A stretch of DNA of 20,000 bases from an uncultured virus (IMG/VR IMGVR_UViG_3300027787_000001) (IMGVR_UViG_3300027787_000001), one strand, 5' to 3'; counted from the stretch's first letter, positions 392-13,422 are shown. A program made the numbers and translations. Notes: a model not told the origin generated them from the sequence alone.

Positions 392-2167
392 CTACCTTTT
401 GCTGTTCCCGCCCATCACGGCCGTGCCGCCGAGGACGGAGGACGCACCAGCCGCAATGCCGGTACTAAACTCAAACGCCCCACGCTCCCAAGTACCGTCA
501 AACGTCCGGCTGACTCCGGCTAAATCCACGTTGTACGGTGCCGACAATGTAATGCCGTCGTTCAAGTGGGCGTCCACCGTTTCACTGGTCAGGTGAAAGT
601 CAGTAGCGGATACGAATGGATTAACCCCAACTCCTCCAGGAGCGGTGCCGACCTGAAATTCATGCGCGGCAACCGTTGTCGGCCCTTCCCCGGTATTAAG
701 CCACGTGTTGTAATCATGCGAGATATCGGCGTTGCTAAATATGTCCCCGGCTGTACAATTCCACCAGAGATTATTTTGAACTGTGTTTCCCGTAGAAGCA
801 GCCAAGGTGATTCTGACACCGGCAACATCCGCTCCGGGGTGCCCAGGAGCTAAATGGATTCCAGAAAAAGTGTTCCCATAGAATACCGAATTCGTCAAGA
901 CACCTGTAGGTCCGTTATCACCGATGCCTTTTGATACCCCACAAGTAGACGACGTGTCACCTAAATGTGTACAAACAGAATCCCAGTCGCTCGTATAGTA
1001 AAAGATATTGTTATATACCAGCCAACTGTCACACAGCCCGTTCAAACACGTGATAAAGCCGGTACCCTGGATATTTTTGAACGTGGAAGAAACAACCGTC
1101 AAATTACTCAGGCCCGTTTTTGTTGAATCGTTTGCCGGTGCCTGCGTCTGAATGGCGTTAGAGTGCTGAGCCGCATCGCTAAAATTATTTTCTATCCAAT
1201 CATTTGACACGGTGAACCCGGTGACATTGCCGGCAGATTGCACCAAAACCTGGATGTCATGAACAAAAGAATGTTTAAGACTGATGGTCGTAACTGTTGG
1301 TGTGGTCGTCGACGGACTTCCAAAATAAAACGCAGTAGAGCCTGACTGGCTGGCGGCATACGCCAAACCGGAGGCCGTGGTGGGGGATGAAGTAAGAATT
1401 AAGTGCGTGGCATCCGTGACTGAGGAAATGGTGCGGACCACAGCGTTAATCGTTATTTGCTTTCCACTCCAAAAACCGGATGTATCGAACTGGCTACGTG
1501 GGCTACCGGAAGCGTCTGTCGCCCAAGTGACTGTAGTAGTTCCATCTGTATTGAGAGTGCCTGTGCCGAGCACCGCTGAACCAGCCGCCTCTACACCATC
1601 CAGTTCTATATGCGCGAGAGTGATATGAGATAGCGACGCTTCGCTGCACGCATGGCTGTCAATGCGAATGAACCCAAACATTCGTCCGCTGCTGACGAAA
1701 TGGAACCCGTAGGTCCCCGTTGTATCGGAAGTCCCAACTTGTCCGTCCACGTCGTAGTAGTTGCCGCACATATCCCAAAAGGGATTCTTGAGTCCGTCTG
1801 TTGCAACAAAAGAATTGGACCACAAGATGTTAGGCGTCACGTCCACGCCAAAACTGGCATTCCATCCGGTTGCCGTTCCGTGATCCGCCCCAGTCGCCGC
1901 CTTGATCGTGATGTGACTCCCGGCTGTCCCGCTGGTGCTGAAGGTGTGAGTAAGTTCCCCGGCACACGGCGTGGTCGTGTCCGCAAGGTTGCCGCCGGAG
2001 TTCCCGATGTAGACTACATCTCCTGCCGCGAGCGGTGGGATTTTACAGTTGGCGTTTGACCAATCTGTCCCAGCGTGTGTCCCCGCGCCACCGGCGAGAA
2101 CAAAGAACGTCGATGCAGAGCAATCCGACACCAGCAGAAACACGTAGATGGGGAATCGCAGTATCAT
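392..2167 (-). CDS. Signal-peptide-bearing right-handed parallel beta-helix (pectin-lyase-like / tailspike-like) protein, 591 aa
   Basis: N-terminus MILRFPIYVFLLVSDCSA|STFFVLAGGAG...GTDWSNA. Asn-ladder repeats (VYNNIFY, FYGNTFSG, VQNNLWWN, HDYNTWLN). Typical beta-helix C-cap NPFVSATDFHL...DLAGVSR...WERGAFEF. ATGA overlap with the upstream stop. Confidence 0.8.
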   Translation of the reverse strand: MILRFPIYVFLLVSDCSASTFFVLAGGAGTHAGTDWSNANCKIPPLAAGDVVYIGNSGGNLADTTTPCAGELTHTFSTSGTAGSHITIKAATGADHGTATGWNASFGVDVTPNILWSNSFVATDGLKNPFWDMCGNYYDVDGQVGTSDTTGTYGFHFVSSGRMFGFIRIDSHACSEASLSHITLAHIELDGVEAAGSAVLGTGTLNTDGTTTVTWATDASGSPRSQFDTSGFWSGKQITINAVVRTISSVTDATHLILTSSPTTASGLAYAASQSGSTAFYFGSPSTTTPTVTTISLKHSFVHDIQVLVQSAGNVTGFTVSNDWIENNFSDAAQHSNAIQTQAPANDSTKTGLSNLTVVSSTFKNIQGTGFITCLNGLCDSWLVYNNIFYYTSDWDSVCTHLGDTSSTCGVSKGIGDNGPTGVLTNSVFYGNTFSGIHLAPGHPGADVAGVRITLAASTGNTVQNNLWWNCTAGDIFSNADISHDYNTWLNTGEGPTTVAAHEFQVGTAPGGVGVNPFVSATDFHLTSETVDAHLNDGITLSAPYNVDLAGVSRTFDGTWERGAFEFSTGIAAGASSVLGGTAVMGGNSKR

Positions 2168-3573
2168 TGCACGAACGCTGTCTGTCCGCCGACACTAGCC
2201 TGATGCTGTGCGGCCCCGACATCACGAAAATTGGTTGTCAATCCCGCAGGGAAAGTCAAAGGGTCTCCGACCGATTGAAGAAGCGCTCCGGCTCCGACCG
2301 TGTTGTTGAGAAGAAAGTTGGACGCTGCTGCGTTGACGAACACCGATCCGGCAGTGACTGGAATAGCTCCGACATTGGCCATTGGGTTGGCGTTGGTGGC
2401 GACCCCAACGGAATTATTGTTGAAGTAGGAAACATTTCTAAGGTTTTTCCCTTGACCAGTAAAATTGAATCCGGCAGAAGCAACGCTGACGCCGTTGTTT
2501 TCTGCATGAGAGTCAACGACTAGCCCTGGCGCGTTGGTGGTACTGGCAGCAAATCCATGCTGGCCGTTGGACACAGCAACGCAGTGGTAACAGACTTGAT
2601 TTGAATAACCGATAGTGGTTGCGCCTGTGTTCCCGTAGGATAAACAATCGACACAATACAGAGTCGTTATCGGGGTCGCTGTATTTGCCCATGCTTCACA
2701 GGCAATGCAGATGGCAGTTCCTCCGAAGACCGCGGCAGAATTAGTCGTCGCGCCGCACTTGTAGAAGATCGGGGTACCGCTGGTAGCGGTATTGAAGTTT
2801 TTGAATAGGCAGTTGGTAAAAATGTTGGCCCCCGATGTCAACTTAGCCGCGGTCTGTGTATTTCCGTCGAAGATGATGTTCTTATATATAGTCGCGCTGG
2901 TCGTAGCGATTGTTACGGTGGTCGTGTTGATTTGGATCGTCGGTCTGTTGTCCGAGTTCCCCAGTGTGCGGCTGGAAGTATACCCTTGCATAAATACCAC
3001 GGTCGCCCCGGAGAACGTGCCGCCCGCCACATTGCCTGTCGCCGAAGTGATCGAGTAGACGGATGCCCCGTCAGCACCAACATTCAAAAGAAAGATCACG
3101 TTTCCGGAAATTGCCAATGAGTTCGCCTGACCGGGGCTTAGAAGTGCCCCACCGATGTTCATGGTCGCTCCGGTCCCAGTAGTCAAGCCGGTTGACCGAT
3201 CCACCACAATCGTGGTCGAGTTGGTGAAAGTAATAACTTGATACCAAGCTGAGGCTATTGATCCTGTACCGCCAGACACGTTGATGATGTTGCCGACGAT
3301 GGCAGCGCTGAAATTAGCCGTTGCCGAGGTGATGGTGGTCGTTCCATTTGTGACCGCATCTGTGGTGGAGATGTTGATCGTCGCGCTCTGACAGGACGTG
3401 CAAGCCACGGCATTCTTATTGGCGAACAGGGACATATCCGTGCCCGATGCGCCGGTGACGAATCCGCCGCCATTGGTGTCGCTGCCGGTGAGCCTGACTT
3501 CAAAAACCGATTGCGCTGATATGGCGGAAAACGCCCGAGATGCAAAGAGTAAAACGACGAGTAGCTTTTTCAT
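2164..3573 (-). CDS. Signal-peptide-bearing beta-helix protein, 469 aa (start revised from 3690 to 3573)
   Basis: ATG at 3573 overlaps the upstream TAA (TAATG). MKKLLVVLLFASRAFS|AISAQ is a Sec-type signal. Coil repeats FTNCLFKN, ICIACEAWAN, YCVDCLSYGN, VCYHCVAVSN. C-cap FVNAAASNFLLN...RDVGAAQH. Confidence 0.8.
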   Translation of the reverse strand: MKKLLVVLLFASRAFSAISAQSVFEVRLTGSDTNGGGFVTGASGTDMSLFANKNAVACTSCQSATINISTTDAVTNGTTTITSATANFSAAIVGNIINVSGGTGSIASAWYQVITFTNSTTIVVDRSTGLTTGTGATMNIGGALLSPGQANSLAISGNVIFLLNVGADGASVYSITSATGNVAGGTFSGATVVFMQGYTSSRTLGNSDNRPTIQINTTTVTIATTSATIYKNIIFDGNTQTAAKLTSGANIFTNCLFKNFNTATSGTPIFYKCGATTNSAAVFGGTAICIACEAWANTATPITTLYCVDCLSYGNTGATTIGYSNQVCYHCVAVSNGQHGFAASTTNAPGLVVDSHAENNGVSVASAGFNFTGQGKNLRNVSYFNNNSVGVATNANPMANVGAIPVTAGSVFVNAAASNFLLNNTVGAGALLQSVGDPLTFPAGLTTNFRDVGAAQHQASVGGQTAFVQ

Positions 3574-4607
3574 TATTGTGTCCCCGAAAGCGTGACCTTC
3601 CCAGACAGTGTGTGGATGTTTGTAGGGGAAGTAAGCACTATGCAAACCACTATTGGCGCGGCTGCCGTGCCTGAGATTGTTTTCGACCACCCGGTTAGAG
3701 TTGTGTCTTTGAATCCGAGAACCGCCGAGAAGGTTGGTGTATCCGAGGCTGTGATTGATGTGGCACCGCCAGGGCCGGATGTCAGATAGTTGGCAAAGGT
3801 CTCGGTCTGAAGATCCAGCGTAGCGCCGCCCGAAACATCCCCGAGTAGGCTAATGCCCGTGATGGTCGCGGTGTAGGTTATGGTATTGCAGGCTGTCTGT
3901 CCTGTGAGGACGGCTGTGCTGGAGAATCCTATCGCAATTTCATGTGTGACCGCCGTCACACCGGAGCCGCTGCATCCGCTTGTCGTCGCTCCGCCGTTTG
4001 CGTCGGTACAGAGAGACGCGCCAGTTCCCGAGACCGTGCCGGAACTCAGGAGCTTCGTGTCGGTGCCTTGGATGGCCTTGATGGAGAGCGTGCCCGGTGT
4101 ACCAGCGCCGTCGCTCACAATTGCGCCTGCTGCGTCGGCGGCGGGGACTTTCCACTGGTAGGCGGTAGGAATCGACGTTGGGGCAAAGATTGTTAGGCCG
4201 TTGGCACCAAAGATAGGTAGCGTGCCCTGCCCAAAGAAGGAAGTACCGGCGATACCAGATCCTACTTGGGTGCTCAACGTGCCAGTGAGCGATAAGTTGC
4301 CGTTGGAATCAAGCAGGCACAAAGGGCATATCGTCTGGATCGCGGTCCCGCCCGCGCTGGTCACGATGGCCCCGTTGGTCATGGTGCCGGTGGTGGTGAC
4401 GGAGCCGTTCCCAGATCCCATATCTGCCCAGGTGTCCGTCGCGGTGCAAAGTCGTTCCTTCGCTGTTGAGGTGTCGAAATATTTTTCACCGGCCGCGCAA
4501 TGCGTTGGAGCCGTGGCGAGTTCGGGCCACGGGGGATTAGGTCCAACTATGACCTGAGCGAACATCGCAGGACAAACCAGGGAAAAAAGTAGCGCCTGGT
4601 ATCTCAT
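3573..4607 (-). CDS. Signal-peptide-bearing fibre/spike-like protein, 344 aa
   Basis: MRYQALLFSLVCPAMFA|QVIVG signal, with GGGGAG RBS upstream. Small Cys-paired N-module (HCAAGEKYFDT...LCTATDTW), Gly/Thr shaft with LCxD(S/A)NG motifs, and a C-terminal beta-sandwich-like domain. Confidence 0.7.
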   Translation of the reverse strand: MRYQALLFSLVCPAMFAQVIVGPNPPWPELATAPTHCAAGEKYFDTSTAKERLCTATDTWADMGSGNGSVTTTGTMTNGAIVTSAGGTAIQTICPLCLLDSNGNLSLTGTLSTQVGSGIAGTSFFGQGTLPIFGANGLTIFAPTSIPTAYQWKVPAADAAGAIVSDGAGTPGTLSIKAIQGTDTKLLSSGTVSGTGASLCTDANGGATTSGCSGSGVTAVTHEIAIGFSSTAVLTGQTACNTITYTATITGISLLGDVSGGATLDLQTETFANYLTSGPGGATSITASDTPTFSAVLGFKDTTLTGWSKTISGTAAAPIVVCIVLTSPTNIHTLSGKVTLSGTQ

Positions 4608-4610
4608 TGT

Positions 4611-4964
4611 CTACTCCCCTCTTTCTACGAGAACCCAAACCGAATACGCACCCGTCCCCGCATAGGTACTAGAAATGGTAATGGTGCTGATTGATCGGAT
4701 CAGGGCAGCGCTCGTGGCGGCATTATTAGAGGTCAGATTGAATCCCGCAGGGATCGTAAGACTTTTAGCCCCGCTATCTGTTGTGAACCCCACTGAAAAT
4801 GAGACAGACCCAGATCCAGCGGTAGAAGTTTCTGCATACACGCTTACTCTGTAGAGTCCACTGGGAAGTGAGGAGCCGACTATCGCTCCAGAAAGACTGG
4901 CGGACTGGGAAAGAAACGAAGTCACTTTCCCGCCGTTTTTTAGGCGCCCCTGGTAGTTGAGCAT
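4611..4964 (-). CDS. Small all-beta virion protein (putative decoration or spike-base protein)
   Basis: GGAG RBS. Ser/Gly/Thr-rich with alternating beta strands (GLYRVSVYAET, YSVWVLVER). Second gene after the capsid gene. No signal peptide. Confidence 0.55.
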   Translation of the reverse strand: MLNYQGRLKNGGKVTSFLSQSASLSGAIVGSSLPSGLYRVSVYAETSTAGSGSVSFSVGFTTDSGAKSLTIPAGFNLTSNNAATSAALIRSISTITISSTYAGTGAYSVWVLVERGE

Positions 4965-5049: not shown

Positions 5050-5466
5050 CTAGCTGACCAGCAGGAAGATTTTCATGGTCCCGGTTTCGGCACCATCGGC
5101 TACTTCCGTGTTGGTCAGGTTCGAGTAGAGCCGACACGTGAAGACGTAGGCTGTACTCGTCCTCGTCCAGACATTTGGCTGGCCGATCTTGATGTTGGTC
5201 CCGGCTGCCGTGACGACAGCGAATAGGACATCGACAGCTCGGATAGATGCGATGCCTTTCTGGAAAGTCCCTCCCTGCTGGCCTGAAGGCATGTCAGGGA
5301 AATCGCCATGTTCGAGCGATTGCAACGGAGCGGTGAAATCGAATGTGATACCGCCAGTTGCGGTAGCGTAAGTGAATCCGATCGTCGCCGTCAGCGAAAC
5401 GATACGCGGATTGGTCAGGTGCGACAGACCAATTGGTGTGGGGTTAACTACAAAGCTGTTTGCCAT
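5050..5466 (-). CDS. Putative capsid decoration/cement protein
   Basis: Immediately follows the major capsid gene, AAGGA RBS, 138 aa, beta-rich (YATATGGITFDF...TEVADG). Confidence 0.6.
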   Translation of the reverse strand: MANSFVVNPTPIGLSHLTNPRIVSLTATIGFTYATATGGITFDFTAPLQSLEHGDFPDMPSGQQGGTFQKGIASIRAVDVLFAVVTAAGTNIKIGQPNVWTRTSTAYVFTCRLYSNLTNTEVADGAETGTMKIFLLVS

Positions 5467-5493: not shown

Positions 5494-6789
5494 CTAGTAA
5501 CCAGAGGGCAAACTGCATCCATAGATCGTCCCTTGGCTGCCTGGGTCAAAGGACACAAAGTTCTCGTCCTGCGTGAGAGAAAACCAGAGTCCCGCCTGCG
5601 GTGCTCCGCTCGGACCAGGGATGAAGAAGAAGCGCTGGCCACCGATCTCGAAATAGCCGAGTTGGTTCAGCCGCGCCTTGCCCCAGAGAGAAGGAACGAT
5701 CCAATCGAGGCGCGAACGATCCTGCCGGTAATCCAGCAGGTGATCGATGCCGGCGAATGGGAACGAGGACTTCGAAGCGTCCTTGGTGGCATTGGGCAGG
5801 AAATCGCGTGCCTCCATGTCCTTCGAGTTCTGGAGGTTGACGGTTAAGGCGACCTGCTCGGAGAAAATCTGCGCGCGCTGCGAGATATTGGCGAGGCCCT
5901 TCAGCCCAGTCGGTTCCTGGCCGCGCCGTTGGCCGATTGCATCGAGTAGCAGCAGGCCGTGGTTCCAGGTCAAGGCTCCATTGGCGTTGATCGAGTTGAC
6001 GGCCAATTCCGGCTCGACTGCTCGATCCAGGCCCTGATAGGTGCCCGAGGAGGCGTAAGAGTTGTGGTAGTACAGTCCCTGTTTCCAGGTTGGTGCGGCG
6101 CCGGTGGTATTGACACCATCGAAGCAGATCACATCTGTTGCTCCGGCCGAAGCGACCAGGCCACTCAAAGTGATCTTTTTGTTGGAGTAGTCGATTTTGG
6201 TCACGAACATTCCCGAGGCGCGCAGTGTGTTGAAGTCGCTCGAATACACGACGACATACATGCCGCGCCGCATACGCTGAATGCCAAAATTTGCATCGAG
6301 CGTATAAGTGGTAGCGCCCGAAACGGTAGCGGTGGCCGTCGCAGTTCCTGCTACTGCCGTGCCATCTGTGTGGAAGCTGAAATCGTTGTAGACGGCGAAT
6401 TCCCTCATCGCCCTCTTCATCGTTTCCTTGAAAACCGATCCGGCCGGTGAGACTTTGGCATCGGCCGTTGCATCCATCTTGAGCTTCGACAACTCAAAGT
6501 TGAGGCGCAGGGGGAAGAACGTCGAGATGAGCCGATCCCCAGTCATTGAGGAGCCGCGGCCCATGTCGCCGAAGTTGTTGTCGTAAGTTCCGAACCGACC
6601 GCCGGCCGATAGCCAAATGGGAGCCCGGAAATCGCGCTCACCTACTCGCGTTACTTCCGTCTTCTCGATTAGGTTCGACGCGACGACAAATGATTCCTGC
6701 CATTCTTGCAGCTTTGGCCGGATGACCTCCGACTGCATCCAAAGTGAGTTTGTGTTGGTATAACCGTGAGTGGTACTGGCGTCTGCCAT
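5494..6789 (-). CDS. Major capsid protein (HK97-type fold inferred)
   Basis: 431 aa, directly after the scaffold-like gene, AAAAGGA RBS. Sequence pattern consistent with phage capsids (E-loop-like ERDFRAPIW..GGRFG, long helix FKETMKRAMREF, GTYQGLDRA, C-terminal DPGSQGTIYG). Confidence 0.8.
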   Translation of the reverse strand: MADASTTHGYTNTNSLWMQSEVIRPKLQEWQESFVVASNLIEKTEVTRVGERDFRAPIWLSAGGRFGTYDNNFGDMGRGSSMTGDRLISTFFPLRLNFELSKLKMDATADAKVSPAGSVFKETMKRAMREFAVYNDFSFHTDGTAVAGTATATATVSGATTYTLDANFGIQRMRRGMYVVVYSSDFNTLRASGMFVTKIDYSNKKITLSGLVASAGATDVICFDGVNTTGAAPTWKQGLYYHNSYASSGTYQGLDRAVEPELAVNSINANGALTWNHGLLLLDAIGQRRGQEPTGLKGLANISQRAQIFSEQVALTVNLQNSKDMEARDFLPNATKDASKSSFPFAGIDHLLDYRQDRSRLDWIVPSLWGKARLNQLGYFEIGGQRFFFIPGPSGAPQAGLWFSLTQDENFVSFDPGSQGTIYGCSLPSGY

Positions 6790-12794: not shown

Positions 12795-13154
12795 CTAGCC
12801 TCTCGGAACATCTGCAGCCCCTGTCCTGTAGGCAATACCGAATTTGGCGGCACCCCAAAGCAACATATCTTCAATTACCTGCTTGGAATCATCTGTGTTT
12901 GATCTCGTCTCAACAACTAGAAGCGTGGTGAAGATCGTAAACTTCTGAATCACCTTATTCCCGGCCTTGCCGTCTTCAAATACAACGCCGTTCGATTCAT
13001 CAAACTCCTCTGGCTTGGTAGGGAATTTTCTAAACCTGTATCGCTCCACCATCGCCTTAACCACGTCAGGGAGAAACACATTTCCTCTCGGGCTGAGATC
13101 AAACGTTTCGATATAGGCAAGGGTTCTAGCGAGGACAACTGCGGCGAGTTGCAC
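12795..13154 (-). CDS. Hypothetical protein, possibly C-terminally truncated
   Basis: Globular-looking sequence (QLAAVVLARTLAYIETFDLSPRG...LLVVETRSNTDDS) starting 4 nt after the upstream stop. More AT-rich than the flanking head genes. Confidence 0.65.
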   Translation of the reverse strand: MQLAAVVLARTLAYIETFDLSPRGNVFLPDVVKAMVERYRFRKFPTKPEEFDESNGVVFEDGKAGNKVIQKFTIFTTLLVVETRSNTDDSKQVIEDMLLWGAAKFGIAYRTGAADVPRG

Positions 13155-13158
13155 TAGC

Positions 13159-13422
13159 TTATTTTCCCTTGAGTGCTGCTTCCTCTGCTGGTGTCGACTT
13201 TACATCCACCGGCAGAATACCGATAGATGCCTGTAGTGTGGCGGCGGCCCGTGTAGCGGGTGTCGATAACAAATCGTTTACGTTAGAACTCGTGCCACGT
13301 GACCCTACAGCCACATCGAAATTATCACGAGACCGGGAACGTTTCTTGGGAGGTCCGGAAAAGACTCCCACGGCAAAAACAAAAGCCAATATAATAAAAA
13401 GACCCACCGATGCTTGCAGCAT
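13159..13422 (-). CDS. Small membrane-anchored protein
   Basis: GGGAGG RBS. N-terminal transmembrane segment VGLFIILAFVFAVGVF followed by basic KKRSRSR. Confidence 0.55.
   Translation of the reverse strand: MLQASVGLFIILAFVFAVGVFSGPPKKRSRSRDNFDVAVGSRGTSSNVNDLLSTPATRAAATLQASIGILPVDVKSTPAEEAALKGK

Follow-up and report, generated by a model that had tools for sequence, protein, structure and literature searches.

A Probably Sec-Exported Fiber and Beta-Helix Module Beside the Head Genes of a Soil Phage: A Possible Virion Appendage

Three consecutive minus-strand genes in the window analyzed here, a stretch of 20,000 nucleotides from the uncultured virus IMGVR_UViG_3300027787_000001, encode a fiber-like protein of 344 amino acids (aa) and two predicted beta-helix proteins of 469 and 591 aa, each of which starts with a predicted Sec leader. 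The present study indicates, with high confidence, that all three proteins leave the cytoplasm. It further suggests that they work like accessory receptor-binding appendages, outside the canonical tailspike family, and the best single reading, for which we see about an even chance, is that an exported fiber-plus-adhesin appendage attaches to virions when the cell lyses. A virus record of 66,639 bp, found in soil metagenomes, ends with the window; the record has a 103-bp terminal overlap and is rated 100% complete, and the genome is that of a complete podovirus-like soil phage of ~66.6 kb.

As the preliminary description of this DNA had stated, the three genes (positions 3573–4607, 2164–3573, and 392–2167) are coupled: the first follows a 117-aa gene after a 3-nt gap, TAATG and ATGA junctions join the 344-, 469-, and 591-aa genes, and 6 nt separate the last from the next gene. 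The same description held that each gene begins with a signal, and this is borne out. Signal calls were made with our own heuristic for n/h/c structure, not with SignalP, and because the heuristic gave false calls on other loci, borderline cases were judged by eye. It calls all three window proteins signal-bearing, and 8 of 30 late genes of the same phage; since only 60 of 3093 internal control windows (1.9%) are called, three calls in a row are far above chance. The predicted leader of the 344-aa protein (4557–4607) is likely cleaved at A17|Q18, as judged from the heuristic and from homologues; its −3 residue, Met, is atypical. In this family 25 of 37 homologues are called signal-bearing, several non-calls resemble fragments, and many members have Gln at +1 (by eye). 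The leader of the 591-aa protein (2114–2167) is likely cleaved at A18|S19 according to the homologue alignment, in which conservation begins at that site and 24 of 26 homologues are called signal-bearing. It is the weakest of the three, with an Asp near the cleavage site and no clear ribosome-binding site, although its start does overlap the upstream stop.

The 469-aa protein has a predicted leader at 3526–3573, with cleavage at S16|A17. From its 859 homologues the best 120 were taken and 115 were classed, 5 with cut or odd starts being excluded; 92 of the 115 start with Met exactly at the predicted cleavage position of the other 23. The cleavage site is placed at AFS|AISAQ because the signal-less homologues, the closest of which are 55–57% identical to the window protein, begin M-AISANSV at that point; the preliminary description had left a choice between AISAQ and QSVFE for the mature end, and the first of these stands. 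That description had also counted homologues lacking the N-terminal extension against export. Such homologues predominate in the 469-aa family but not in the 591-aa family, and the leaderless forms in fact help the case for export, because they mark the cleavage site and carry the same body as a cytoplasmic protein in structural modules. Export and leader cleavage, which had been proposed from the leaders, are now strongly inferred from this exact signal/no-signal register within the family and from cysteine pairs that are specific to signal-bearing forms.

The cysteines had originally been used in another way, the large number in the three proteins (9, 10, and 10) being taken as an argument for disulfides, and that argument is weak and finds no support. 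Median cysteine counts for the mature part of 469-family proteins are 9 with a signal and 10 without, even counts show no excess with a signal (14 of 23) over those without (54 of 92), and we rejected total count or evenness as a sign of periplasmic folding, since neither separates the classes. For eight of the ten cysteines of the window's 469-aa protein, signal-less forms also fill the alignment column; only C58/C61, a CxxC motif at 3391–3402, is signal-specific, with 14 of the 23 signal-bearing forms having the motif against 2 of the 92 without a signal (by alignment column, 13 and 14 of 23 against 0 and 1 of 92). The fiber provides a second case, located in its C-terminal knob (residues 215–344; 3576–3965). 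From 28 distinct knob rows we excluded 4 that are truncated at the 5′ end and 1 near-duplicate; of the complete fibers left, 9 of the 10 with a signal have one of two register-conserved Cys pairs, and none of the 13 without a signal does. The window knob carries C240/C322, a pair seen only in signal-bearing fibers, and its jelly-roll topology suggests that the two residues form a disulfide. We infer that the signal-specific pairs of both families are disulfides.

With leaders removed, the window 469-aa protein clusters with two signal-bearing forms in a clade of 21 (support 95) whose remaining members are signal-less, and signal status changes at least 7 times on strongly supported branches of the family tree (11 times by parsimony). 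We do not accept seven independent inventions of a signal: 14 of the 23 signal-bearing forms share the Cys pair in the same N-terminal loop, and the loop sequence is closely similar in most of these 14, across branches, which points to recombination of the N-terminal block or to noise in the tree. It is very improbable, in our judgment, that the leaders are unused, or are leftovers of captured host genes, and that assembly takes place in the cytoplasm, as it does for ordinary fibers. The leaderless majority of the 469-aa family would fit such a history, as would the atypical 591-aa leader and a single mixed locus (L163, 1749–3686), in which a signal-bearing 623-aa knob fiber precedes a signal-less 469-family beta-helix; these two partners, if they dock, could meet only after lysis. 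However, the complete n/h/c structure of the leaders is preserved in diverged phages, Cys pairs accompany the leader in two separate families, neighboring genes switch signal status together, and no window protein has an internal Met at its cleavage site.

The preliminary description had grouped the three genes as spike or beta-helix genes, which holds for the fold of the 469- and 591-aa proteins but neither for the 344-aa protein nor in the canonical tailspike sense. The 344-aa protein is fiber-like: behind the leader it has a small Cys-paired N-terminal domain, a beta-repeat stalk, and the C-terminal knob. It matches phrog_35197 (E 1e-7; the knob alone, E 3.4e-10), and residues 173–343 match viral clusters by predicted structure, with template-modeling (TM) scores of 0.74–0.81 by target. 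Of 26 aligned knobs, 24 match phrog_35197 and 17 match phrog_10330, annotated “virion structural protein”; the window knob itself has no phrog_10330 match. The knob family is also present in cultured cyanophages (Synechococcus phages S-SSM7 and S-CAM1), where it is annotated as structural, and L094 encodes a fusion of a knob with a tail-collar fiber; a sequence search with the knob profile matched no solved structure. The gene lies in a virion structural module, flanked by the likely capsid gene on one side and by conserved morphogenesis genes on the other. The 344-aa product is a predicted fiber whose knob belongs to a phage structural family. Among related records compared with window positions 3573–4607 (L005, L007, and L045), one has Trp for Gly at a single knob position and the others are identical to the window.

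The 469-aa protein (length counted from the MKKLL start) is modeled as an exported right-handed beta-helix of the Pel9A kind, with an AlphaFold2 predicted local distance difference test (pLDDT) score of 93; the best structural match of the model is 1ru4 (Pel9A; Z 23.5, root-mean-square deviation [rmsd] 2.8, 299 aligned), and the protein likely binds glycans. Asp and Glu make up only 3% of it, and the invariant columns of 103 sequences contain no conserved acidic cluster; no cluster of the PL9 type, with its Ca-binding Asp residues and catalytic Lys, appears in those columns of the sequence alignment, and the protein has no Pfam match. An adhesin fits this composition better than an enzyme. The 591-aa protein is predicted to be an exported beta-helix with an inserted small domain (pLDDT 77), and to bind glycans as well. 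Its best match is 5mqp (Z 28.2, rmsd 2.7, 306 aligned), and Pel9A (Z 26.3, rmsd 2.7, 335 aligned) is tied with other lyase and hydrolase families (Z 26–28); a choice-of-anchor Q match on the C terminus is weak (E 0.041). Neither Pfam nor NCBIfam names any of the three proteins above cut-off. Within the 591-aa family two kinds of tail are found, a PxPPTNLxV type, which includes the chromosomal members, and a G-x-V-x-L-x-G-G type, to which the window protein belongs (examples: L041 9974–11569; L044 6115–7956; P0122, P0126, and P0130); tail exchange may accompany carriage of the gene by a phage. Separately, a conserved signal-less gene of ~100–116 aa lies just upstream of many 469-family genes that lack a knob neighbor (L048, L049, L060, L061, L065, L076, and L105), and in L060 it precedes a signal-bearing form, as a second kind of partner.

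Comparison of loci suggests that the fiber and the 469-aa protein make up a module. Sufficient context was available for 56 of 78 non-redundant 469-family loci, and in 18 of these a knob is encoded directly upstream. An [AG][FY] tail motif is present in 13 of the 18 knob-upstream loci and in 2 of the 38 others, and the beta-helix tails are alike beyond chance when grouped by knob (permutation p 5e-5), p-values that are optimistic given that the motif was picked after inspection of the data and that several loci come from related phages. In the window protein this C-terminal tail (2167–2190), modeled with low confidence in the monomer, is the candidate docking strand for the knob. The signal status of the beta-helix and its upstream knob fiber agrees in 17 of 18 loci, with 7 having both signals, 10 having neither, and L163 being mixed (Fisher p 2.5e-4, statuses assigned by eye); this set comprises 17 loci of the tail survey, the cut locus L096 being excluded, plus L072. 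The pair follows a major head gene with leaders in L072 and without them in L083, and signal-less pairs follow tape-measure genes in the long-tailed phages L064 and L073. The signal-less pairs, all from uncultured tailed phages (L063, L064, L073, L075, L083, L094, L110, and L150), share with the window the knob, the beta-helix body, the gene order, the tail class, and the location in a structural module. They differ in having no leaders and none of the signal-specific Cys pairs, and none has a described function. As a side observation, L151/L152 (1–11900) carry a signal-bearing fiber and beta-helix pair beside genes for 310 and 409 aa without a PHROG match; these neighbors are unlike tailed-phage head genes, and the virus is possibly tail-less.

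The genes around the module bear on its origin. Late genes lie on the minus strand in the order terminase large subunit (phrog_979, E 3e-25), a 790-aa portal-like protein, a scaffold-like protein also of 469 aa, and the likely major capsid protein of 431 aa (5494–6789; weak phrog_14242 match, E 0.064), which is conserved in 33 of 34 capsid-relative loci (32 viral, many of them closely related, and 2 stretches of the genome G016). Farther along, an endolysin is encoded, as well as adaptor-like and nozzle-like proteins and three long ones without Cys that are typical of podovirus ejection proteins, roles that we assign from gene order and make-up. Between the adaptor-like and nozzle-like genes sits a signal-less fiber-like gene of 562 aa (G000:C1 37137–38825; L001 10498–12186). 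The capsid gene forms the upstream boundary of the block and a signal-less conserved 199-aa gene, whose start is at 2–385 and which has a homologue in 23 of the 34 loci, the downstream boundary. The block opens with a signal-less 138-aa protein (5050–5466; homologue in 1 of 34 loci), by its position a candidate decoration protein, followed by the signal-less, Cys-free 117-aa jelly-roll protein (4611–4964), which matches viral clusters (TM 0.82–0.85) and is a candidate cytoplasmic adaptor for the exported parts. None of the 34 loci has a homologue of the 117-, 344-, 469-, or 591-aa gene, and a conserved position in the capsid operon is thus not supported. Because the block is absent from the capsid relatives and the distance from the capsid gene to the 199-aa gene is 5109 nt here and 27–1546 nt in 23 relatives, this 5.1-kb stretch is an accessory insertion.

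Insertion between conserved genes would also be expected of a moron, and it is conceivable, if improbable, that the genes encode host-derived surface or periplasmic proteins that are expressed in a carrier state and alter the surface or mask receptors from within a late operon. Lambda lom and phi80 cor are morons placed in this way; lom, cor, and T5 Llp have signal peptides and lie among structural genes, but they are membrane proteins or lipoproteins, not fiber- or beta-helix-like. The slightly lower G+C content at third codon positions of the block (0.51–0.63 for the 117-, 344-, 469-, and 591-aa genes, 0.63–0.70 for four head genes) is in keeping with such an origin, and an insertion sequence (IS)-like transposase, present in the genome along with a ParB-like gene, hints at long residence in a host. 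On the other hand, four family searches of the complete genome found no integrase, resolvase, recombinase, or HTH_3 repressor, and the knob belongs to a phage structural family. Nor, as the preliminary description had noted, is there a sign of independent expression: promoter-like sites number 6 against 4.9 in shuffles, with none ahead of the three genes (sigma-70 consensus only), no terminator was found after them, the junctions overlap, and 6 nt remain downstream. A stem-loop considered in the 85-nt gap before the 117-aa gene was rejected, the gap folding no better than shuffles (z −0.73). As for the host, it is likely an Acidobacterium, because homologues of the terminase, portal, capsid, and nozzle occur together in a prophage of the genome G016, which belongs to the same phylum, Acidobacteriota, as a genome of the Terriglobia. 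The capsid matches 2 of 401 Acidobacteriota genomes, one of them G016; the single capsid protein used as a query found no relative in genome contigs.

A role of the fiber and beta-helix on the virion is supported indirectly only, by the virion structural annotation of the knob family and by the placement of signal-less pairs after capsid or tape-measure genes. The Cellulophaga phage phi18:3 (KC821620), a tailed phage, offers a parallel: gp085–087 are, like the window genes, three consecutive genes with Sec-like leaders, with Gln at +1, and all three are annotated “structural protein” from tandem mass spectrometry (MS/MS) in GenBank. The other translated phi18:3 genes with MS/MS-based structural annotation have no leader, the heuristic call on gp120 looking false. 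This case suggests that signal-bearing proteins can co-purify with tailed virions.

The products may, alternatively, be exported late and never join the particle, serving, free or on the cell surface, as a complex of the fiber-adhesin or depolymerase type that loosens or binds the exopolysaccharide of the host and helps progeny leave or reach new cells. This is the strongest rival; we regard it as rather unlikely, with a chance that is nonetheless appreciable. [quoted passage not shown] A homologue of the N-terminal part of the fiber (query P0149) matches 3 of the 401 Acidobacteriota genomes, and each matched chromosomal locus has one or more secreted fiber-like genes followed by a large secreted protein; one such cassette includes a homologue of the phage's own 1178-aa protein (E 4e-29). 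None of 41 open reading frames from the three cassettes and two related loci has a phage head or tail Pfam match; many are glycosyltransferases or other sugar genes, and metabolic genes are nearby. In contrast, the 469-aa family and the knob occur almost only in phage structural modules and are near-absent from the 401 genomes, in which the 469-aa profile has no full-length match (short, weak beta-helix matches in 17) and the knob has 1 match. The signal-less versions keep tail and gene order, and the 469-aa protein is, by composition, a better match to an adhesin than to an enzyme; a free adhesin would be of little use to a phage.

Several observations weigh against docking on virions. The chromosomal cassettes suggest that secreted fiber and large-protein modules can exist without a virion, and the closest relatives of the 591-aa protein in genomes, 38% identical, are in exopolysaccharide loci of Terriglobia. 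Neither the three proteins nor a signal-less homologue has a relative in a collection of 50,697 phage records. The absence of the block from relatives, together with the presence of a separate signal-less fiber-like gene, makes the block dispensable for the lineage. The phi18:3 proteins have no sequence match to those of the window, contain 0–3 Cys, and come from a phage with a Bacteroidota host; they could be co-purified rather than parts of the particle. The post hoc choice of the tail motif belongs here as well.

The appendage that we favor differs from known systems in instructive ways. Tailspikes and depolymerases (P22 gp9 type, CBA120 tailspike proteins, and Klebsiella depolymerases) share with it a right-handed beta-helix in a structural module. 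However, the window 469- and 591-aa proteins start at the helix cap (enzyme alignments begin at residues 17–22), can be aligned with Pel9A-type enzymes from end to end, C-terminal cap included, and carry leaders; they appear to attach by a C-terminal tail, both tails being short and of low confidence in the model. Identity with a canonical tailspike of the P22 gp9 type was rejected, because the N-terminal particle-binding domain is lacking and leaders are present. MAT fibers share with the window fiber a leader on a phage-like fiber, a likeness by description only; they are chromosomal and on the bacterial surface, whereas the window module is borne by a complete phage genome, in the head gene region. 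Filamentous-phage pIII and pVIII are virion proteins with signal peptides, and those virions assemble at the membrane without lysis. Head fibers and decoration proteins such as the phi29 head fiber and T4 Hoc are accessory and dispensable and are thought to aid attachment, according to a review in which the term “signal peptide” is absent (PMC7602432); they resemble the window proteins as accessory appendages and differ in fold. In a literature search whose full-text scope was mostly papers outside subscription, no account was found of Sec-exported fibers or spikes joining tailed virions, and PMC5723332 only counts signal peptides.

In the mechanism that we propose, the leader-bearing products of the accessory block likely exit the cytoplasm via the Sec pathway, with cleavage of their leaders, and likely fold with disulfides in the periplasm to give a fiber carrying two predicted glycan-binding beta-helices. 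The 469-aa protein would use its ~8 C-terminal residues to dock on the knob of the fiber; the 591-aa tail differs. Once the inner membrane breaks, the N terminus of the fiber would bind a site built in the cytoplasm, possibly one that the 117- or the 138-aa protein provides on the head; this is the weakest step of the scheme. The function would be auxiliary binding, and possibly also cutting, of host exopolysaccharide, beside the signal-less 562-aa tail fiber. A broader proposal, to which we give somewhat less than an even chance, is that tailed phages of Acidobacteriota-like hosts build a virion part in the periplasm: a normally cytoplasmic, modular system of fiber-knob and peptide-docked adhesin would have turned Sec-exported and disulfide-locked more than once, would join heads built in the cytoplasm only once lysis brings the two compartments together, and would recruit secreted exopolysaccharide-binding proteins of the host as receptor-binding parts. 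The elements new here are the paired signal and no-signal forms of the module, the signal-specific Cys pairs, the co-variation of knob and tail, and the chromosomal counterparts. The accepted view is that a tailed-phage particle is complete before it leaves the cytoplasm. Should exported appendages join at lysis, this would amount to a second assembly compartment, phages could use oxidatively folded host adhesins or enzymes for host recognition, and some secreted “auxiliary” carbohydrate-active genes of soil phages would be particle parts. The locus is a good test case, since near-identical bodies with and without a leader (at the 55–57% identity given above) provide natural controls for export, disulfides, and docking.

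The phage and its relatives carry further signal-bearing and fiber-like genes. The late operon closes with a second cassette (G000:C1 20110–26493; L002 13471–19854, minus strand), which has a layout like that of the window block, with a signal-less gene for 183 aa followed by signal-bearing genes for 611, 1178, and 140 aa. The 611-aa protein is fiber-like, with 14 mature Cys; the 1178-aa protein has 24 Cys, two putative immunoglobulin (Ig) domains, and a 56-residue stretch that is 52% identical to the 469-aa protein. The capsid relatives L181 and L189 have a signal-bearing fiber-like gene in or beside the slot of the 562-aa gene, and across the capsid relatives such genes occupy other slots as well (L177, L181, L189, and G016), those of other relatives being signal-less. 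In the lysis region, a signal-bearing 220-aa protein (G000:C1 42135–42797; L001 15496–16158, minus strand) without a family match resembles an outer-membrane beta-barrel at its C-terminal end, where strands alternate and the last residue is Phe, and could be a unimolecular spanin-like or an exclusion protein. Two small genes of 119 and 87 aa, of lower GC and without a family match, lie between the terminase and portal genes (window positions 12795–13422). Between the early and late regions, a cluster of counter-oriented and unassigned genes that includes the IS-like transposase (G000:C1 13000–20100) may form a defense or accessory island. Finally, chromosomal cassettes in Acidobacteriota (L238–L241) combine secreted phage-like fibers with secreted proteins of 1000–1300 aa near glycosyltransferase and sugar genes and possibly encode an undescribed bacterial surface appendage.

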